DNA of 64,000 nucleotides from a virus (IMGVR_UViG_3300046323_000234); one strand, 5' to 3'; positions 55,147-64,000 are shown, counted from the first letter of the stretch. The notes: a model not told the origin generated them from the sequence alone. Made by a program: numbers and translations.

Positions 55147-56445
55147 GTGAACTTACCCACCCACACTTCGTGATAGTTGGGCTTCCACGTATCACGCACA
55201 GGCTATTGCCTCACGTTGAGATACGCTAGGCTTGTTCCTAAGCCCGAAGTTTTTAATATTTATAGCTGCATTAATATCTCTATCATGCTTGGTATTGCAT
55301 TTAATGCAAATCCATTCTCTATCATTAAGTGTTAATTCTTTATTGATATATCCACAACAATTACAAGTTTTACTTGATGGCTCAAATCTACCAATTACTG
55401 ATAGATTTTTTCCTTGCCATTCAGCCTTATATTCCAGCATTGTTCTGAACTCACCCCAACCCATATCACTTATCGCTCTTGCAAGGCAATGGTTTTTAAC
55501 CATGTTCTTTACAGATAAGTCCTCAAGACAAATTGTATCATAATTATCGATAAGGTATTTGCTTATCTTGTGTAGATAATCTTGTCTTTGATTACGAACT
55601 GTTTCATGAAGCAAGGCAACAATCAATTTTTGTTTTTTGTATTGGTTACTTCCTTTCTTCTTTCTTGCAAGACTTCTTTGTTCAACTCTTAATTTTTGCA
55701 TTGTAGATTTAAAGAAATCTTTGTTCTCGAATTTCTTTCCATCTGATGTTATTGCAAAATCTTTTATTCCCAAATCAACACCAACAGCAGAAGTTTCTGT
55801 TATTGGCAATTTCTTTGGTAATTCTTGTTTGTTGTCAACTAATATGCTAACAAAATATTTATTTGTAACTGTTCGTGAAACAGTAACAGTTTTTATATCT
55901 CCTTTAAATTCTCTATGTAAATCAATTCCAACATATTTAAGTTTAGGAATAAATATTTGCTTATTATCTTCACTTAAAAATACACCTTGTGGTAGTTGAA
56001 ATGATTGTTTTCCATGTTTATTCTTAAACTTTGGAAACCCCTTTCCCTTAAAAAAATTTGTATATGCATTATCAAGATTACGTAAAACCATTTGTAAAGC
56101 TTGTGATGGTGCTTCCTTGAGCCAAGGGCATTCAGTATCTTTTAACTCCTTCACTTGCTTAATAAGGTCAAAGCAATCAATATTGGTTTTATTCCCAACA
56201 TAAGCAGTTATCTTGGTTTCTAATCCAAGATTATATACAAAACGAGTTTGTCCAAATATATTAGCAAGAAGACCTTGTTGATCTTCTGATGGGAATATTC
56301 GATATTTATATGCTTTTAACAATTTATAGATAACCTTATTTATCTATAAATAGTATAATATTTTAAAAAAGATTTAAATAATTAAAAATAATTTGTCGCT
56401 TACATCCCATCCACGTAAAAACGATGAATGGGTTTTACGCTCCGT
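55147..56445 (-). mobile_element. Non-autonomous IS200/IS605 element (tnpB only)
   Basis: tnpB flanked by left-end hairpin CCCATTCA..TGGATGGG and right end ..GTGGGTGGGTAAGTTCAC; no tnpA; left boundary approximate. Confidence 0.8.
55192..56322 (-). CDS. tnpB: TnpB RNA-guided nuclease
   Basis: MLKAYKYRIFP HTH, GVDLGIK (RuvC-I), ICLEDL (RuvC-II), CNCC..CIKC Zn finger, HDRDINAA (RuvC-III). Confidence 0.95.
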   Translation of the reverse strand: MLKAYKYRIFPSEDQQGLLANIFGQTRFVYNLGLETKITAYVGNKTNIDCFDLIKQVKELKDTECPWLKEAPSQALQMVLRNLDNAYTNFFKGKGFPKFKNKHGKQSFQLPQGVFLSEDNKQIFIPKLKYVGIDLHREFKGDIKTVTVSRTVTNKYFVSILVDNKQELPKKLPITETSAVGVDLGIKDFAITSDGKKFENKDFFKSTMQKLRVEQRSLARKKKGSNQYKKQKLIVALLHETVRNQRQDYLHKISKYLIDNYDTICLEDLSVKNMVKNHCLARAISDMGWGEFRTMLEYKAEWQGKNLSVIGRFEPSSKTCNCCGYINKELTLNDREWICIKCNTKHDRDINAAINIKNFGLRNKPSVSQREAIACA

Positions 56446-58844: not shown

Positions 58845-59372
58845 TTATTGTAAATTAATTCTAAGACCTAATTCTTTAAACTTTAATAGTGCTTCAGCAT
58901 TACCTTTACAGTCATCAACGGGATGGTGGCTGTGTTTAGTTTTTCTATATTTTCTTTTCCATTCTTGGTTTAATGATGCATCATTTTTCATCCCACAATA
59001 TAAATCCCCAATCCTACGACCTGAGAATCCAAAAGGATTTTTACCAATAAAATTATGAAAGTACCAATTAATCCACTGCCAATCAAAAGCAAGATTATCA
59101 CTAATGAATGTTGGTTTACCAATCGAATTTTCATTTATCCAATCCAAAAATAATTGCATAACATCTTGTGGTTCATCAAATCCCAAATGTTGATCACGAC
59201 TGAAACCACTAATTGCTAAAGCTTCTGGAATCCAAATATTGGATATTGGTTTTACTTTACCGTAAAAAGTTTTTGTTAATGAAGGTTCAACAATAACAGC
59301 ACCAAAACAAACCATCGAATATTTGTGAGGAATTTCACCATCAGCTTCAACATCAACTACCATATAACTCAT
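58845..59372 (-). CDS. DEDDh 3'-5' exonuclease (Rv2179c-like)
   Basis: VVDVEADG, SDNLAFDW, HHPVDD. Confidence 0.85.
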   Translation of the reverse strand: MSYMVVDVEADGEIPHKYSMVCFGAVIVEPSLTKTFYGKVKPISNIWIPEALAISGFSRDQHLGFDEPQDVMQLFLDWINENSIGKPTFISDNLAFDWQWINWYFHNFIGKNPFGFSGRRIGDLYCGMKNDASLNQEWKRKYRKTKHSHHPVDDCKGNAEALLKFKELGLRINLQ

Positions 59373-59387
59373 GTTTAATTAATTTAA

Positions 59388-59585
59388 TTATTTTACTATC
59401 CAAGTAAATCCAAAGACACCAATCATAATAATTCTATTCATATCCGCATTTTCTGAATGTGGATTATCTAATCTTCTAACAACCAATATTGGAAATTGGT
59501 TCACCATCAAATTAAAATAGTCATGTATTCTGATATGACCACTATATTCACAATACCACAAGCAATTATTTAAATATTTTTTCAT
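59388..59585 (-). CDS. Small hypothetical protein
   Basis: 65 aa ORF. Confidence 0.45.
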   Translation of the reverse strand: MKKYLNNCLWYCEYSGHIRIHDYFNLMVNQFPILVVRRLDNPHSENADMNRIIMIGVFGFTWIVK

Positions 59586-59618
59586 AATATTCTATTAAAT
59601 TTTGTTAAAGGTAACTAA

Positions 59619-60419
59619 TTAGATTGGTAATGCAATTTTTGAAAGCATTTTTTTACTGACATGGGTATAAATTTCGGTAGTTTTTACACTTGAGTGACCA
59701 GCTAACGATTGGATAAACCTTAAATCTGTTCCCACTTCTAATAGATGTGTAAAGCAGCTATGTCGTAATTTGTGGATGCTCGATGTTTTATCAATATATT
59801 TTTTGAATATGTTTTGGCAAGATTTAACCGAATACTGTGGAAAATTTTGTCCATTAAATAAATACTCAACAGATCTATATTCTTTAAAATATATCCTTAA
59901 TAATTCCAAAACAGTTTGGGATAGTGGTACAATCCTATCTTTTCTACCTTTAGCTTGTCTAATATTGATGATCATTTGTTTTGAATCAATGTCTTCAATT
60001 TTTAGATTAACTATCTCAGAAACTCTTAATCCAACTGAATAACATAATGTTAATATAGCTTTATGTTTAATGTTTTCAATTTTGGATAATTGAGATAAGA
60101 TATGATCATTGTCAATAACTCTTGGTAATTTTTTCTCTTTTCTCGGCCTTTGAAAATCAACCTTGTCGTATTTCTTTTCCAAAACCTTTTCATAAAGAAA
60201 CTTGATTGAGTTTATTATCTGGTTCTGTTGACTAATTGATGTGAACTTATAATCATTCAGATAAGATTGAAAGTCATTGGAAGATATGTGAATAATTTGC
60301 TTATCGCCAAATGATGAAACAAATGGCTTAATATGTGATATATAATTATTTATCGTATTTATTGAGTAATTAAAATATATAAGCTTTTGTTCACAAATCT
60401 TTATAATTTTATCGTTCAT
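59619..60419 (-). CDS. Tyrosine recombinase (integron-type integrase, lacking the IntI insertion)
   Basis: SAM-like N-terminus (YSINTINNY), GLRVSE, KGRKDR, HKLRH, LAGHSS, EIYTHV; likely start MNDKII at 60419. Confidence 0.9.
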   Translation of the reverse strand: MNDKIIKICEQKLIYFNYSINTINNYISHIKPFVSSFGDKQIIHISSNDFQSYLNDYKFTSISQQNQIINSIKFLYEKVLEKKYDKVDFQRPRKEKKLPRVIDNDHILSQLSKIENIKHKAILTLCYSVGLRVSEIVNLKIEDIDSKQMIINIRQAKGRKDRIVPLSQTVLELLRIYFKEYRSVEYLFNGQNFPQYSVKSCQNIFKKYIDKTSSIHKLRHSCFTHLLEVGTDLRFIQSLAGHSSVKTTEIYTHVSKKMLSKIALPI

Positions 60420-60439
60420 TTGATTGTAAGTTATTGATT

Positions 60440-60481
60440 TATTGATATTTATATTTACTTGCGTATATATAGCAGTTAGCG
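60440..60481 (+). other. attI-like primary recombination site (core GTTAGCG at 60475)
   Basis: First GTT core, about 55 bp upstream of the integrase start, with no hairpin arm before it; complementary to TACCGCTAAC at the end of cassette 1. Confidence 0.65.
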
Positions 60482-60487
60482 GTAATA

Positions 60488-60775
60488 CTACCAACTGTTC
60501 ACAAATCGAATTTTATGCACACCTTCTGGTATTTCGGAAACGATGATTTCAAATCCTTCTGTCATATCTTCACTGTATTCATGCTTTGGTATTTTAATCT
60601 CAAGTTTTTCCTCTAAAAGATATTGTTCTGGATATTTACTACCAAAATATTCAGCGGTTTCTTTTGGAAGTTCTGAAATACCTGCTTCAATACAAGCATT
60701 TAAAACTTTGGCGTGTTTCTTATAATTTTCGTTTTCAGGTGAAACAAAACCTGTAATTCTCGTTGACATTCCCAT
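60488..60775 (-). CDS. Cassette 1 ORF, hypothetical
   Basis: 95 aa between attI and attC1. Confidence 0.7.
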   Translation of the reverse strand: MGMSTRITGFVSPENENYKKHAKVLNACIEAGISELPKETAEYFGSKYPEQYLLEEKLEIKIPKHEYSEDMTEGFEIIVSEIPEGVHKIRFVNSW

Positions 60776-60822
60776 TTTATTATAGTTTTAAATTAAAAAT
60801 TCGTTTTTCAAATCCGTACTAC

Positions 60823-60947
60823 CGCTAACAGCACATAGGCAAAAAAGCCGTTTCAGTTTCACAAGAATATTTTTCATAAGTATTAAATTTATCGTTTCAA
60901 ATTAAGTTATCGTTTCGGCTTCTTCGCCTATCTGCAAAACGTTATGT
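60823..60947 (+). repeat. attC-like site 1
   Basis: CGCTAAC-a-GCACATAGGCAAAAAAGCCG...CGGCTTCTTCGCCTATCTGC-aaaac-GTTATGT. Confidence 0.85.
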
Positions 60948-60957
60948 GTAATAAAAA

Positions 60958-61200
60958 TTATTCACATGGTTCGTTCTTTCTACCACTACCTGTTTCAACC
61001 AAGTACGCCTTTTCGATTAATTTCAAATAAGATACTGGTTTTCCTCTGTCGGTATCACAAATAACCTTTTGTCTTTGTTCACAATAATACCCTTCCGAAG
61101 TTAATCGAAATTCCTCACCGTTTGGTAATCTAACTAAATCACCATTTCTCCACGCTGATAAAACAGGGTTGTATTCTTTTATTTTTGGTAATCCATCCAT
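60958..61200 (-). CDS. Cassette 2 ORF, hypothetical (MDGLPKIKEY...)
   Basis: ATG at 61200 just inside attC2; frame stays open to 61281. Confidence 0.6.
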   Translation of the reverse strand: MDGLPKIKEYNPVLSAWRNGDLVRLPNGEEFRLTSEGYYCEQRQKVICDTDRGKPVSYLKLIEKAYLVETGSGRKNEPCE

Positions 61201-61213
61201 AATTTTTACATAC

Positions 61214-61343
61214 ACATAACAAAGAATATAAGTAATAACCGAGTTATGTGGTTTATTTAAGTTACTACCCTTTACAATCATTTATACGTAATTTTAAGTT
61301 TGTGTTTCAAGTCGGTTACTACTTATATTCTTAACCGTTAGTG
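61214..61343 (+). repeat. attC-like site 2
   Basis: ACATAAC-a-AAGAATATAAGTAATAACCGA...TCGGTTACTACTTATATTCTT-aacc-GTTAGTG. Confidence 0.85.
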
Positions 61344-61586
61344 GAAATTTGCCTTTTCAACTTCTCCGCATTTAACACACTTTCGTGGGTAAGGTTGGTT
61401 CATGCTTCTGCTATACATGTGGGAGCAAGGCAAACTATCCACTAACACAGGGTTAGAAGAAATTTTTAATGCTTCCTTTATCATCATAATACAGTCCACA
61501 TATGCACCTTTCCTTGCTCTACTTTCTTTTGTGCTATCTCCACAGTTTGCTGCTTTCAATTTTAGTTCTGCTAATAGTTTCTCCAT
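61338..61586 (-). CDS. Cassette 3 ORF, Cys/His zinc-binding tail; starts inside attC3 loop
   Basis: CSH...CVKC; stop TAA is the complement of the GTTA core. Confidence 0.6.
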   Translation of the reverse strand: MEKLLAELKLKAANCGDSTKESRARKGAYVDCIMMIKEALKISSNPVLVDSLPCSHMYSRSMNQPYPRKCVKCGEVEKANFH

Positions 61587-61649
61587 TTTAATTATATTTA
61601 GTTGTTAGTAATCGCATTAAAAACTTCTCTAACCCTGATACCGTTATGC
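61440..61649 (+). repeat. attC-like site 3 (long loop containing coding sequence)
   Basis: CACTAAC-a-CAGGGTTAGAAGAAATTTTTAATGC...GCATTAAAAACTTCTCTAACCCTG-atacc-GTTATGC. Confidence 0.8.
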
Positions 61650-61724
61650 TCCATGCCTTAGTTCAGTCCTTCAATTTGAGTTTCGTGATGAAAAACAAAA
61701 AGAATTTACCAAACGCACTGTAAA

Positions 61725-62180
61725 TTATTTTATTTCTTGTTTAAAATACAATGGTTTTTTTGAAACTACAATGGTTGCACCAATCTCATTTGGGTCATCT
61801 AATAATATTTCATTACCATCACCAAACACTTTATATAAATAATCGCCATATTTATACTTATCATATTGGTATGATAATGCTTTTATTGGTTCGTTTGATA
61901 CAAAAGTAAACCCATACCCATTTTTATTAAAAACATTATTCATTTCTTCAAAATCATCGTTTTCTAAATTTTCATCATAATCTGATATTATATCCATATA
62001 AGCACTTCTAATTAAATCAGAATAATCCGATACATTAAGTACTGATGCTTTATATAATCCATCCTTCATATCTCGTTTAGATGAATGATAACCCAAAAAT
62101 GTTTTGTTTTCGGTATTTTCATTAACAAATTGTTTAAAGTTTTTCACTTTATCAATCATTTTACGTATATCTTCACTCAT
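61725..62180 (-). CDS. Cassette 4 ORF, leader + possible ART-like domain
   Basis: MSEDIRKMIDKVKNFKQFVNE leader; GYHSS..FTFVS..YGDYLYKV; ATATTTATA 15 nt upstream. Confidence 0.65.
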   Translation of the reverse strand: MSEDIRKMIDKVKNFKQFVNENTENKTFLGYHSSKRDMKDGLYKASVLNVSDYSDLIRSAYMDIISDYDENLENDDFEEMNNVFNKNGYGFTFVSNEPIKALSYQYDKYKYGDYLYKVFGDGNEILLDDPNEIGATIVVSKKPLYFKQEIK

Positions 62181-62291
62181 AGTTTTATCTTTATATATAA
62201 ATATTCCAATTTTAAAAATCCACCCTAAAATTCTTTTTGTTTTTCTTTCGTGTTTCAAATCAGCATTATCAGTTAATAAGTCGGCACGAGA

Positions 62292-62385
62292 GCATAACAA
62301 GGTGTATAAGAAAGTTTGCTATCCACAGTAGTTGTAATTTGAAAGTTTCTACAAGCAAACCTTCTCATACACCCAACCGTTAGGC
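62292..62385 (+). repeat. attC-like site 4
   Basis: GCATAAC-a-AGGTGTATAAGAAAGTTTGCT...AGCAAACCTTCTCATACACCC-aacc-GTTAGGC. Confidence 0.85.
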
Positions 62386-62389
62386 ACAA

Positions 62390-62632
62390 TTAAGAAACTC
62401 GCCAAACCTCACTATTAGCGAAAGCAATTTGGTATTCTTCTTCAACCTTCTTTTTAAATTCATTCGTTAAATCATTTACCATTTCGCCATTCATTGGTGT
62501 TACTGCGTGAAATTCTACCTTTATACCTTTATGTATTCCAGCACTATAAGCCATTTCCATTTGTTGTTTTAAGTATCCTTCTGAATACCAAATTTCTTCT
62601 TTACCGTTTCGTTCTCTAATTAAACTATCCAT
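62390..62632 (-). CDS. Cassette 5 ORF, hypothetical (MDSLIRERNG...)
   Basis: ATG at 62632; frame open through the attC5 arm to 62677. Confidence 0.6.
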   Translation of the reverse strand: MDSLIRERNGKEEIWYSEGYLKQQMEMAYSAGIHKGIKVEFHAVTPMNGEMVNDLTNEFKKKVEEEYQIAFANSEVWRVS

Positions 62633-62647
62633 GATCAAATTAACTGT

Positions 62648-62741
62648 GCCTAACAAGCAATATAAAACAGTTGCCATCAGGCTTATTACTAAATTTGAAA
62701 CGTCTTATAAGGCAACCGTTTCATATTGCCGACCGTTATAA
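62648..62741 (+). repeat. attC-like site 5
   Basis: GCCTAAC-a-AGCAATATAAAACAGTTGCC...GGCAACCGTTTCATATTGCC-gacc-GTTATAA. Confidence 0.85.
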
Positions 62742-62797
62742 CCAATACTATATTATACGTTCCATATAGCATTTTGGTTCAAAAACTTTTAAAAATT

Positions 62798-63244
62798 TTA
62801 CCCACGCTTTTTTCTTAAAATTCTTTGAAAAAATGGTAATTCTATAAAATCATCTACACCATTTACTGTTTCAACATCATAATGTTTACCTTTATAATAT
62901 AACCAAACGTGGTCTAATTTCATCAATTTTTGAGATTCTGAACCAAATTTTGTAAATTTTTTATAATATCTCTTATTATTCTCATCAGAAAAATCAATCG
63001 CACAATCTTCACTATAATCTGGATTTGTAGCCAATAAAAACACGTCATCACCTTCCCCACCAACATCTTGCAATAAATCATAAGCAAATTCATCACAATA
63101 ACCCCTATTAATTTGATTTATTGTACATCCAATGTTTTCACGATAATCATCAATTAAATTATTTATTTTGAATGAAATATTTTCATTTAAAAACTCATTT
63201 AATGTAGTTTTAATTATCTTTCGTATTTTGCTGTTATCGTCCAT
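62798..63244 (-). CDS. Cassette 6 ORF, leader + Cys/His/Asp (papain/transglutaminase-like) domain
   Basis: MDDNSKIRKIIKTTLNEFLNE leader; INRGYCDEFA...HVWL...HYD; ATATTTATA 15 nt upstream. Confidence 0.65.
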   Translation of the reverse strand: MDDNSKIRKIIKTTLNEFLNENISFKINNLIDDYRENIGCTINQINRGYCDEFAYDLLQDVGGEGDDVFLLATNPDYSEDCAIDFSDENNKRYYKKFTKFGSESQKLMKLDHVWLYYKGKHYDVETVNGVDDFIELPFFQRILRKKRG

Positions 63245-63352
63245 AGTTTTTACTTTATATATAAATATTCAATTTTAAAATTCCCACCGCACATTTTTAA
63301 AAGTTTTTGTTCTGTGTTTCAAACAAGCATTTGTGGTAATTATCCGTACTGG

Positions 63353-63406
63353 TTATAACAGCAAATATATTGCATTAAAACGACAATATATTTGCAACCG
63401 TTATAA
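63353..63406 (+). repeat. attC-like site 6 (minimal, 54 bp)
   Basis: TTATAAC-a-GCAAATATATTG-11nt-CAATATATTTGC-aacc-GTTATAA. Confidence 0.85.
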
Positions 63407-63601
63407 GGCATTGTAAAATACACCTTCACCGACTTCTAAAATCATTTTCATTTTTCTAAGCAATCTGTAAATTGTCGGAATGGCTCTATTATACAATCTT
63501 CCTTCTGTGTCATATCCCCAACATTCGGGGTAATATTTTTTAGCTATACTCCCGACTGTAAAATCACCCTTTGGTAAATCTTCAATTTTGAAACGTGCCA
63601 T
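63401..63601 (-). CDS. Cassette 7 ORF, possible winged-helix protein
   Basis: 66 aa; stop codon overlaps the GTTA core. Confidence 0.6.
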   Translation of the reverse strand: MARFKIEDLPKGDFTVGSIAKKYYPECWGYDTEGRLYNRAIPTIYRLLRKMKMILEVGEGVFYNAL

Positions 63602-63613
63602 AAAAACAACGCC

Positions 63614-63707
63614 CTATAACATTATATTTATGCAAGTGGGCGTAATCATTTGCATAAATCATGGGTTCATTGCATTGCCCACCTGCATAAATATTTGTTC
63701 GTTATAT
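63614..63707 (+). repeat. attC-like site 7
   Basis: CTATAAC-att-ATATTTATGCAAGTGGGC...GCCCACCTGCATAAATAT-ttgttc-GTTATAT. Confidence 0.8.
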
Positions 63708-63763
63708 TCAATTTGTTTTTTTTTGCCACCGCAGAGAAAAAATTTAAAATTTGTTTTTAAAAA

Positions 63764-63973
63764 TTAAGAGGTTTTTACGTCCTGTATTCTTTCATATTCA
63801 ACTTCATCAATCCAATGTTTACAAAGCGGACAAATCGTATCACAGTAATTTTCATCAGCATCGTCAATATCGCTTTCAAAGTCATTTGACTTAAATACAC
63901 CTTTGCATTCTGGACATTCAATATCTGTATTTTCGTATTTAAATAAAAACTCTGGAAGTGGAGCGTGTTCCAT
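63764..63973 (-). CDS. Cassette 8 ORF, zinc-finger protein (5' end may extend beyond window)
   Basis: CPEC...CPLC. Confidence 0.55.
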   Translation of the reverse strand: MEHAPLPEFLFKYENTDIECPECKGVFKSNDFESDIDDADENYCDTICPLCKHWIDEVEYERIQDVKTS

Positions 63974-64000
63974 AAATTGATGGTCAAAATTAACTTCTAC

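Follow-up and report, generated by a model that had tools for sequence, protein, structure and literature searches.

The stretch of DNA analyzed here (the window) comprises 64,000 nt of the viral sequence IMGVR_UViG_3300046323_000234. Its last 4.4 kb contain a minus-strand gene encoding a tyrosine recombinase, with small minus-strand open reading frames (ORFs) and long imperfect hairpins to the right of this gene. We analyzed this region as a putative integron-like cassette array composed of the recombinase gene (the array integrase), an attI-like site, and seven hairpins that resemble the attC sites of integrons. Genes for a helicase, a DNA polymerase, an exonuclease, and baseplate proteins lie elsewhere in the window, indicating that the element resides in a large phage.

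Integrase, attI-like site, and hairpins of the window

The integrase scored 181 bits against the NCBIfam model XerA_Arch and 169 bits, in two stretches, against integrase_gron (TIGR02249), both below the cut-off. Its alignment to 2a3v revealed that the I2 insert of IntI was absent, with 36 integrase residues lying opposite 84 in IntI4 (approximately 48 residues fewer). The relatives of the integrase are 266-268 aa long. Twenty-two of them, sharing 56-74% identity with the window protein, were identified in IMG/VR contigs, several of which span 276-362 kb. More than 7000 relatives were scored in metagenomes, and the nearest 120 were all 266-268 aa and labelled XerD.

The features of the region are given below. 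The coordinates of the sites include both 12-nt R boxes, and each core pair gives the start of TAAC and the start of GTTA on the plus strand.

59619..60419, minus strand: tyrosine recombinase of 266 aa, the array integrase, Xer/IntI-like (Pfam Phage_integrase and Phage_int_SAM_4)
60458..60486, minus strand: attI-like site, reading ATTACCGC-TAAC followed directly by TGCTATATATACGC on the minus strand, with a variable, cassette-derived part up to TAAC and a constant part thereafter
60818..60952, minus strand: site 1, attC-like hairpin, cores 60826/60941; covariance model, 62.9 bits on the minus strand
61209..61348, minus strand: site 2, cores 61217/61337; covariance model, 57.3 bits on the minus strand
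61435..61654, minus strand: site 3, cores 61443/61643; 141-nt loop and one extra unpaired T on the 3' arm
62287..62390, minus strand: site 4, cores 62295/62379; covariance model, 90.3 bits on the minus strand and 26.6 on the plus strand
62643..62746, minus strand: site 5, cores 62651/62735; covariance model, 93.3 bits on the minus strand and 30.4 on the plus strand
63348..63411, minus strand: site 6, a 48-nt mini-site with a perfect 12-bp stem, cores 63356/63400; covariance model, 43.1 bits
63609..63712, minus strand: site 7, cores 63617/63701; covariance model, 61.6 bits
60488-60775, 60958-61281 (likely start 61200), 61338-61586, and 61725-62300, all minus strand: cassette ORFs, from the ORF listing
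62390-62677, 62798-63244, 63401-63601, and 63764-63973, all minus strand: further cassette ORFs, from the ORF listing, some with uncertain starts

On the plus strand, the attI-like sequence is GTTAGCGG at 60475; it has no hairpin and adjoins the integrase. Site 3 was missed by the covariance model because its loop was too long. This site is partly coding, and the start of the ORF at 61338-61586 lies inside its loop (window 61443-61646). No Pfam or NCBIfam family matched the cassette ORFs.

Strand asymmetry, site anatomy, and crossover side

An earlier reading of the window, made from the sequence alone (the sequence-only reading), had proposed from a mismatch bias that folding occurs on the minus strand, and had noted a conserved asymmetric bulge. 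When the arms were aligned with gaps, the same counts were obtained: 11 of the 12 stem mismatches placed A in the left arm opposite C in the right arm on the plus strand, the other being C:C, and all five mismatches in the end-to-end pairings of cassettes 1, 5, 6, and 7 were A:C. The bulge next to the core was likewise recovered, with spacers of 1-3 nt after TAAC and 4-6 nt before GTTA at all seven sites. The claim that extrahelical bases are largely absent also held; single-base stem bulges were rare and had no conserved position, the exception being site 3 with its extra T. When both strands were folded, the minus strand was steadier at six of the seven sites with DNA parameters (one tie) and at all seven with RNA parameters. 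What had been termed a mismatch bias is, however, better described as built-in G·T wobble pairs at fixed positions than as scattered substitutions.

We scanned 22 related loci together with the window by a procedure that scored G·T and A·C alike and hence was blind to strand. The scan returned 95 TAAC...GTTA hairpins, all of which were located upstream of the integrase, and none was detected downstream of the integrases in approximately 90 kb. A single polarity was shared by 92 of the 95 sites, whose spacers were (5,2), (5,1), (4,1), or (6,x), and no site exhibited the mirror polarity. The counts that follow refer to 88 unique sites from the window and 20 related phage contigs, for which the folding strand is the integrase-sense strand, that is, the minus strand of the window. 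This strand carried 125 G·T wobbles (111 with G in the 5' arm and T in the 3' arm, and 14 with T and G reversed), compared with four A:C or C:A pairs, the form in which a wobble of the opposite strand appears on this one; the stems further contained 16 transversions and 1442 Watson-Crick pairs.

Folding energies revealed the same asymmetry. With DNA parameters, the folding strand was the better one at 81 of the 88 sites (means of -14.67 and -12.47 kcal/mol, a gap of 2.20; Wilcoxon p 3e-15), and with RNA parameters it was the better one at 82 of the 88 (means of -30.1 and -23.9 kcal/mol). The minimum-energy folds contained 2.69 G:T pairs on the folding strand versus 0.60 on the other, and the folding strand was purine-rich. 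The ungapped stems ran for 17-27 bp. In an alignment of 30 sites, compensatory changes were present in 17 of the 20 stem pairs, and the observed score was reached by none of 500 shuffles.

The wobbles were confined largely to four positions, which held approximately 94% of them. The pair that includes the T located 15 nt 5' of GTTA was G·T in 70 of the 71 stems long enough to contain this position (the stem of site 6 is too short), and positions 10, 12, and 13 contributed 24, 12, and 11 wobbles, respectively; all remaining positions summed to eight wobbles on the folding strand versus three on the other. TAAC and GTTA were invariant in all 88 scanned sites. TAAC was followed by G (+4) in 85 sites and GTTA was preceded by T (-1) in 86, which would provide a further wobble closing the TAAC/GTTA core. 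Outside the core, ATT lay before nnnnnTAAC, with T(-7) in 88 of 88 sites, and AGT lay after GTTAnnnnn, with G(+10) in 63 of 88.

Read along the minus strand, the 5' half of a site comprises ATTnnnnnTAAC (R'), a spacer of approximately 5 nt (G-K-T-T-K), the L' arm (KRTAnnnnnAGT and beyond), and the loop, after which the 3' half comprises the L'' arm (ATTnnnnnTAYM), 1-2 nt (T or TT), and GTTAnnnnnAGT (R''). Across the family, R' and L' were separated by spacers of 4-6 nt, and L'' and R'' by spacers of 1-4 nt, mostly 1-2; these spacers were partly closed by G·T pairs. The predicted fold consists of two inverted 12-bp boxes, in each of which the second pair from the outer end is a T·G wobble: an R box, in which ATTn5TAAC pairs with GTTAn5AGT, and an L box that mirrors it, in which KRTAn5AGT pairs with ATTn5TAYM. 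The boxes flank a central region with 7-8 nt in its 5' strand segment and 4 nt in its 3' segment, leaving a bulge of 3-4 nt, and a pure 5'-side bulge of this size was present in the minimum-energy folds of 46 of the 88 sites. On the complementary strand, the wobbles become A·C mismatches and the bulge moves to the other arm; this strand thus folds approximately 2.2 kcal/mol more poorly and with a different geometry. The suggestion of the sequence-only reading that the bulge replaces extrahelical bases as the signal for strand selection is plausible, and the fixed wobbles are an equally good candidate. The wobble T located 15 nt from GTTA might be the counterpart of the classical extrahelical T at 'position 23/24', which we offer as a lead only.

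Several variations on this anatomy were observed. Mini-sites of 48 nt recurred in the window (63356-63403) and in four related loci (L001:8016-8063, L005:8870-8917, L006:9121-9168, and L022:9043-9090); they have a perfect stem of 11-12 bp and keep the core and the bulge, and the stem stops before the fixed wobble. The loops of the hairpin class of approximately 88 nt share a motif near AACTTTCAAATTA despite their differing stems (alignment A1, columns 45-60; window 62320-62350), and this motif is possibly a site for a host factor or part of a promoter. Cassette ORFs often end in a stop codon that shares bases with the conserved ATT of the R' box (TA-ATT), as at window 62390-62392 and in the 5' flanks of many sites; part of the conservation of ATT may therefore be coding-related. 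In one related phage, at least two sites (L015:9522-9655) have CAAC rather than TAAC at the 5' core, and the T of TAAC is thus not universal in the wider family.

The side of the hairpin at which crossovers occur was examined through attI, shared cassettes, and cassette ends. An attI sequence of the form nnnnnTAAC followed by TATnATATAT was conserved 60-75 nt upstream of the integrase start in approximately 20 loci, in which the sequence 5' of TAAC was variable; the window stretch 60420-60486 has its equivalents in these loci. An all-against-all blastn comparison of the arrays detected just three shared segments. Two shared cassettes, which were 100% identical between L008 and L010 and 99.4% identical over 495 nt between L014 and L016, started at TAAC with the hairpin and stopped at the next TAAC, so that the hairpin travels with the ORF downstream of it. 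In the window, the ORF at 61338-61586 crosses the TAAC of site 3, and a crossover on the opposite side of the hairpin would split it. Moreover, the variable 5 nt that follow GTTA at one end of a cassette and the 5 nt that precede the next TAAC at the other were complementary at all five positions in 42 of 71 cassettes versus 2.4% of random pairs, whereas the variable bases on the two sides of one hairpin matched no better than random. Together, these sequence comparisons place the minus-strand crossover at the AAC that lies 5' in the hairpin, as on the classical bottom strand; a crossover at the 5'-side AAC is what defines the bottom strand in classical integrons (PMC5027507). The minus strand was accordingly identified as the folding strand, as the sequence-only reading had claimed, by four independent criteria, namely G·T excess, lower folding energy, purine skew, and crossover side.

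The cassettes also appear to have moved recently. L014:399-893 and L016:7700-8194 constitute the same cassette at 99.4% identity, although the integrase genes of the two host phages are only 68% identical, which suggests recent movement. When 120-nt flanks were compared for pairs of similar hairpins, similar hairpins mostly preceded different cargo, and the L008/L010 pair was the only clear case of shared cargo.

The proposed folding of the minus strand and rival explanations

We consider it likely, with a probability of roughly 0.75, that the seven hairpins are attC-like sites of an integron-like phage cassette array and that their recombinogenic form is the folded minus strand, which also encodes the integrase and the cargo. 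In the proposed mechanism, the integrase lacking I2 would bind the folded minus strand at its R and L boxes, perform a single cleavage in TAA^C of R', and exchange the cleaved strand with attI or another site, and replication would resolve the junction, as it does in integrons and in the integration of CTXphi by XerCD. The wobbles and the bulge would do the jobs of the extrahelical bases and the I2 helix, that is, choosing the strand and blocking a second cleavage. The complementary strand, in which three or four fixed positions hold A·C mismatches and the bulge lies on the wrong arm, would be less stable and misshapen, and the unequal central region may prevent cleavage by the L-box monomer. 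The folding strand, being the non-template strand of the cargo, might be exposed by transcription or lagging-strand synthesis, which is speculation.

Several points weigh against this interpretation. Folding, binding, and cleavage are all inferred, and because the integrase lacks I2, homology alone does not justify assuming that it recombines single strands. The energy gap, a modest one, derives from naked-strand models at 37 C. Many hairpins fall in few sequence families, and the 88 sites are therefore not fully independent. The fixed T and G positions could be base-specific contacts in duplex DNA. In the phages, the folding strand is also the mRNA strand. Bacterial sites found with the covariance model, which are described below, are biased because the model rewards wobbles, and only the strand-neutral scans are free of this bias.

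The principal rival explanation holds that the integrase acts on duplex DNA as a conventional Xer recombinase and that each hairpin comprises two simple sites, R'-spacer-L' and L''-spacer-R''; the wobbles would then be a by-product that never forms, and the fixed T-versus-C difference between the boxes would be a base-specific asymmetry of the half-sites. We regard this as unlikely. The integrase is indeed Xer-like and without I2, and R'/L' and L''/R'' resemble ordinary core sites in that each pair comprises inverted 12-bp boxes with 4-8 bp between them. The stem covariation nevertheless extends far past the 12-bp boxes, up to 27 bp, with 17 of 20 pairs compensatory, which a duplex mechanism does not require. 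Duplex exchange between two sites is conceivable, given that the G-K-T-T-K spacer is fairly conserved across sites, but the two spacers of a single site differ by 3-4 nt, and the center of attI (C-TATnAT) shares only the C with the spacer of the sites (C-GKTTK), which is poor homology for two-strand exchange. Lower energy, G:T excess, and purine skew are, in addition, marks of the experimentally proven folded strand of classical attC sites (PMC5027507).

A second rival explanation places the selection on messenger RNA (mRNA): the hairpins would be RNA elements upstream of the cassette genes, with a role in translation control, processing, or stability, and only the transcribed sense strand would tolerate G·U pairs. 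Of 59 inter-site segments in the related phage arrays, 54 carried their longest ORF on the folding strand. The folding strand of the phages is thus the coding strand, and the phage data alone cannot separate DNA from mRNA; the RNA energy gap, 6.1 kcal/mol, also exceeds the DNA gap. None of the seven window hairpins was followed by a terminator-like T-run, promoter-like matches were no commoner than in shuffles and none occurred at the sites, and no Rfam family matched the sites in a scan of 59000-64000, in which a sub-threshold nuoG match at 61092-61113 was taken as chance. The hairpins accordingly differ from intrinsic terminators and related RNA stem-loops in having neither a T/U run nor a match to a curated RNA family. 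The key position was G·T in 70 of 71 stems rather than a mixture of G-C, G-U, and A-U, and the same motif flanks the R box, where the crossovers occur.

Bacterial relatives provided a separation of the two strands' roles. Five bacterial metagenome-assembled genome (MAG) assemblies were searched, and the same type of site was identified near short or decayed relatives of the integrase in Fibrobacteria (L033), Sedimentibacter (L031), Cytophagales (L028 and G004 contigs), and Thermodesulfovibrionia (L025). The scan detected no convincing sites near integrase relatives L023-L027, L029, L030, L032, and L034, some of whose contigs are short. In the bacteria, the long ORFs were located on the strand opposite the folding strand; they include an ApaLI restriction-modification pair, GmrSD, GNAT, and TetR. 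When the bacterial sites from the strand-neutral scan were read on the coding strand, 13 of 13 were top-like, with 12 A:C versus four G·T pairs. The fixed G·T pairs recurred in 15 of 15 and 11 of 13 bacterial sites in model-based alignments, which were fitted to the model. The wobbles and the bulge therefore lie together on the non-coding strand of the bacteria and follow the polarity of recombination rather than transcription, which favors folded bottom-strand DNA over mRNA. The sequence-only reading had left open whether selection acts on bottom-strand DNA or on the mRNA; the DNA alternative gained support from the bacterial relatives, and the mRNA alternative did not. We thus consider mRNA as the selected structure to be decidedly improbable, although an added RNA-level role in the phages, beside the DNA role, is possible.

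A neutral mutational bias, such as C-to-T deamination of the strand that is more often single-stranded, might have produced the G·T excess without selection, and the mismatches are indeed mainly transitions and the bias is weak outside the four hot positions (8 vs 3), but this explanation is scarcely credible and, like chance, was rejected on the positional data, because deamination would strike both arms, with approximately 60:40 expected from the 289 G:C and 190 C:G stem pairs and 111:14 observed, and because approximately 94% of the wobbles fall at four positions, one of them near-invariant across unrelated stems and bacteria.

Relation to integrons and CTXphi

The principle of a strand bias in folded sites is already published. 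Nivina et al. (2016) reported for 263 classical attC sites that the bottom strand was 2.12 kcal/mol steadier, contained 1.24 G:T mispairs versus 0.39 on the top strand, and was enriched in purines, and they proposed that these properties favor bottom-strand folding (PMC5027507). The effect size in the phage sites is nearly the same: one strand is approximately 2 kcal/mol steadier (2.20 here), the G:T excess is 2.69 versus 0.60, and the steadier strand is likewise purine-rich. The sites resemble classical attC also in being imperfect inverted repeats, R''-L''...L'-R', with AAC/GTT cores, and in having a variable part of the R box that moves with the cassette. As in classical integrons, they delimit the single-gene cassettes of a tandem array that adjoins an integrase and attI, and the integrase is divergent from the top-strand direction of the array.

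The differences from the classical system are equally evident. In the definition given in PMC5027507, the L'' arm of a classical attC site bears extrahelical bases and each arm has a 5-6 nt spacer, whereas the phage sites lack the conserved extrahelical bases (the G and T of the L'' arm) and have a central spacer of approximately 5 nt versus 1-2 nt. Their R and L boxes are 12 bp long with a defined ATT/AGT outer end, and their G·T pairs lie at fixed positions, one of which is near-invariant. Classical IntI reads the extrahelical bases of folded attC through its I2 insert (PMC4792948), and the phage integrase lacks this insert. Classical cargo lies on the top strand with attC downstream of the gene; in the phage, the cargo lies on the folding strand and the hairpin is upstream of the gene. 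The host, moreover, is a large phage.

A parallel in mechanism is offered by CTXphi, in which XerCD, which lacks I2, recombines a folded strand that mimics duplex DNA (PMC4792948). Like attP(+) of CTXphi, the predicted structure of the phage sites is a folded strand without extrahelical bases, which mimics a duplex core and has an unpaired central region. Both systems would employ a Xer-type recombinase without I2, a one-strand exchange, and resolution of the junction by replication, as described for CTXphi (PMC4792948) and as we infer here. CTXphi differs in having one site, the host XerCD, and a chromosomal dif, with the whole phage genome being integrated, whereas the present element has a dedicated recombinase, its own attI, and an array of many cassettes.

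Integron parts have been found in phages before. Qi et al. (2023) described classical integron parts in phages, with attC-type sites and cassette clusters, virulent phages included, and bottom strands recombined better than top strands in their assays with IntI1 (PMC9892861). That study used IntegronFinder and concerned classical attC and IntI; it described no I2-less integrase, fixed wobbles, or inverted cargo orientation. A full-text literature search likewise yielded neither a phage integron without I2 nor a mention of attC sites with fixed wobbles. What is new in the present element is the absence of extrahelical bases, the fixed wobbles, the asymmetric spacer, the integrase without I2, and the cargo on the folding strand. 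The integrase, attI, and site polarity form a platform laid out as in a classical integron, with every cargo gene reversed onto the folding strand, and the folding strand sets the polarity of the whole element.

The integron field treats extrahelical bases and I2 as a co-evolved pair that is essential for single-strand recombination (PMC4792948). Escudero et al. (2016) described their co-evolution as a chicken-and-egg problem and pointed to CTXphi (PMC4792948). The present sites suggest that hairpin sites can be strand-specific in the absence of both extrahelical bases and the I2 insert. We propose, tentatively and with considerable doubt, that the element is a functional integron in which the extrahelical bases and the I2 helix, the two features regarded as defining single-strand attC recombination, either never existed or were lost. 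Invariant G·T wobbles at the outer end of both 12-bp boxes, together with the one-sided bulge of 3-4 nt, would then select the strand and prevent cleavage of the second one. If true, the element would supply the 'functional intermediary form' called for by Escudero et al. (2016), one that links hairpin recombination of the Xer/CTXphi type to classical integrons, and its carriage by abundant large phages would be consistent with integrons having a viral root. Mutations are easily directed at the fixed wobbles and the bulge, and the transition from a Xer-like enzyme to an integron integrase is thus directly testable.

The bacterial arrays with insert-less integrases, which are of the Bacteroidota type and others (L028, L031, L033, and G004), share with the phage sites the TAAC/GTTA cores, a spacer of 5 nt versus 1-3 nt, and the G·T positions, and their short integrases are 40-57% identical to the phage integrase. 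Unlike the phage array, they carry their genes on the top strand, which is the classical cargo orientation, their integrase is co-oriented with the cargo and upstream of the array, and their cargo includes restriction and other defence genes. Because the recombinase family is very common in metagenomes and labelled XerD, an unannotated gene-shuffling system may be hidden under that name, possibly a large one of phages and Bacteroidota-type bacteria.

Two of the contigs examined contain further features near the integrase or array. In the Fibrobacteria MAG, the array lies on a chromosome contig (L033) and adjoins a truncated integrase and the housekeeping gene for pyruvate:ferredoxin oxidoreductase (PFOR); the defence cargo at L033:10553-19814 comprises an ApaLI-like endonuclease and methylase, GmrSD, a NucS/DUF5655 protein, GNAT, and TetR. 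In the window, a gene similar to IS200/605-type transposases is located on the minus strand at 55192-56322 (phrog_506, E 7e-130), 3 kb from the integrase.

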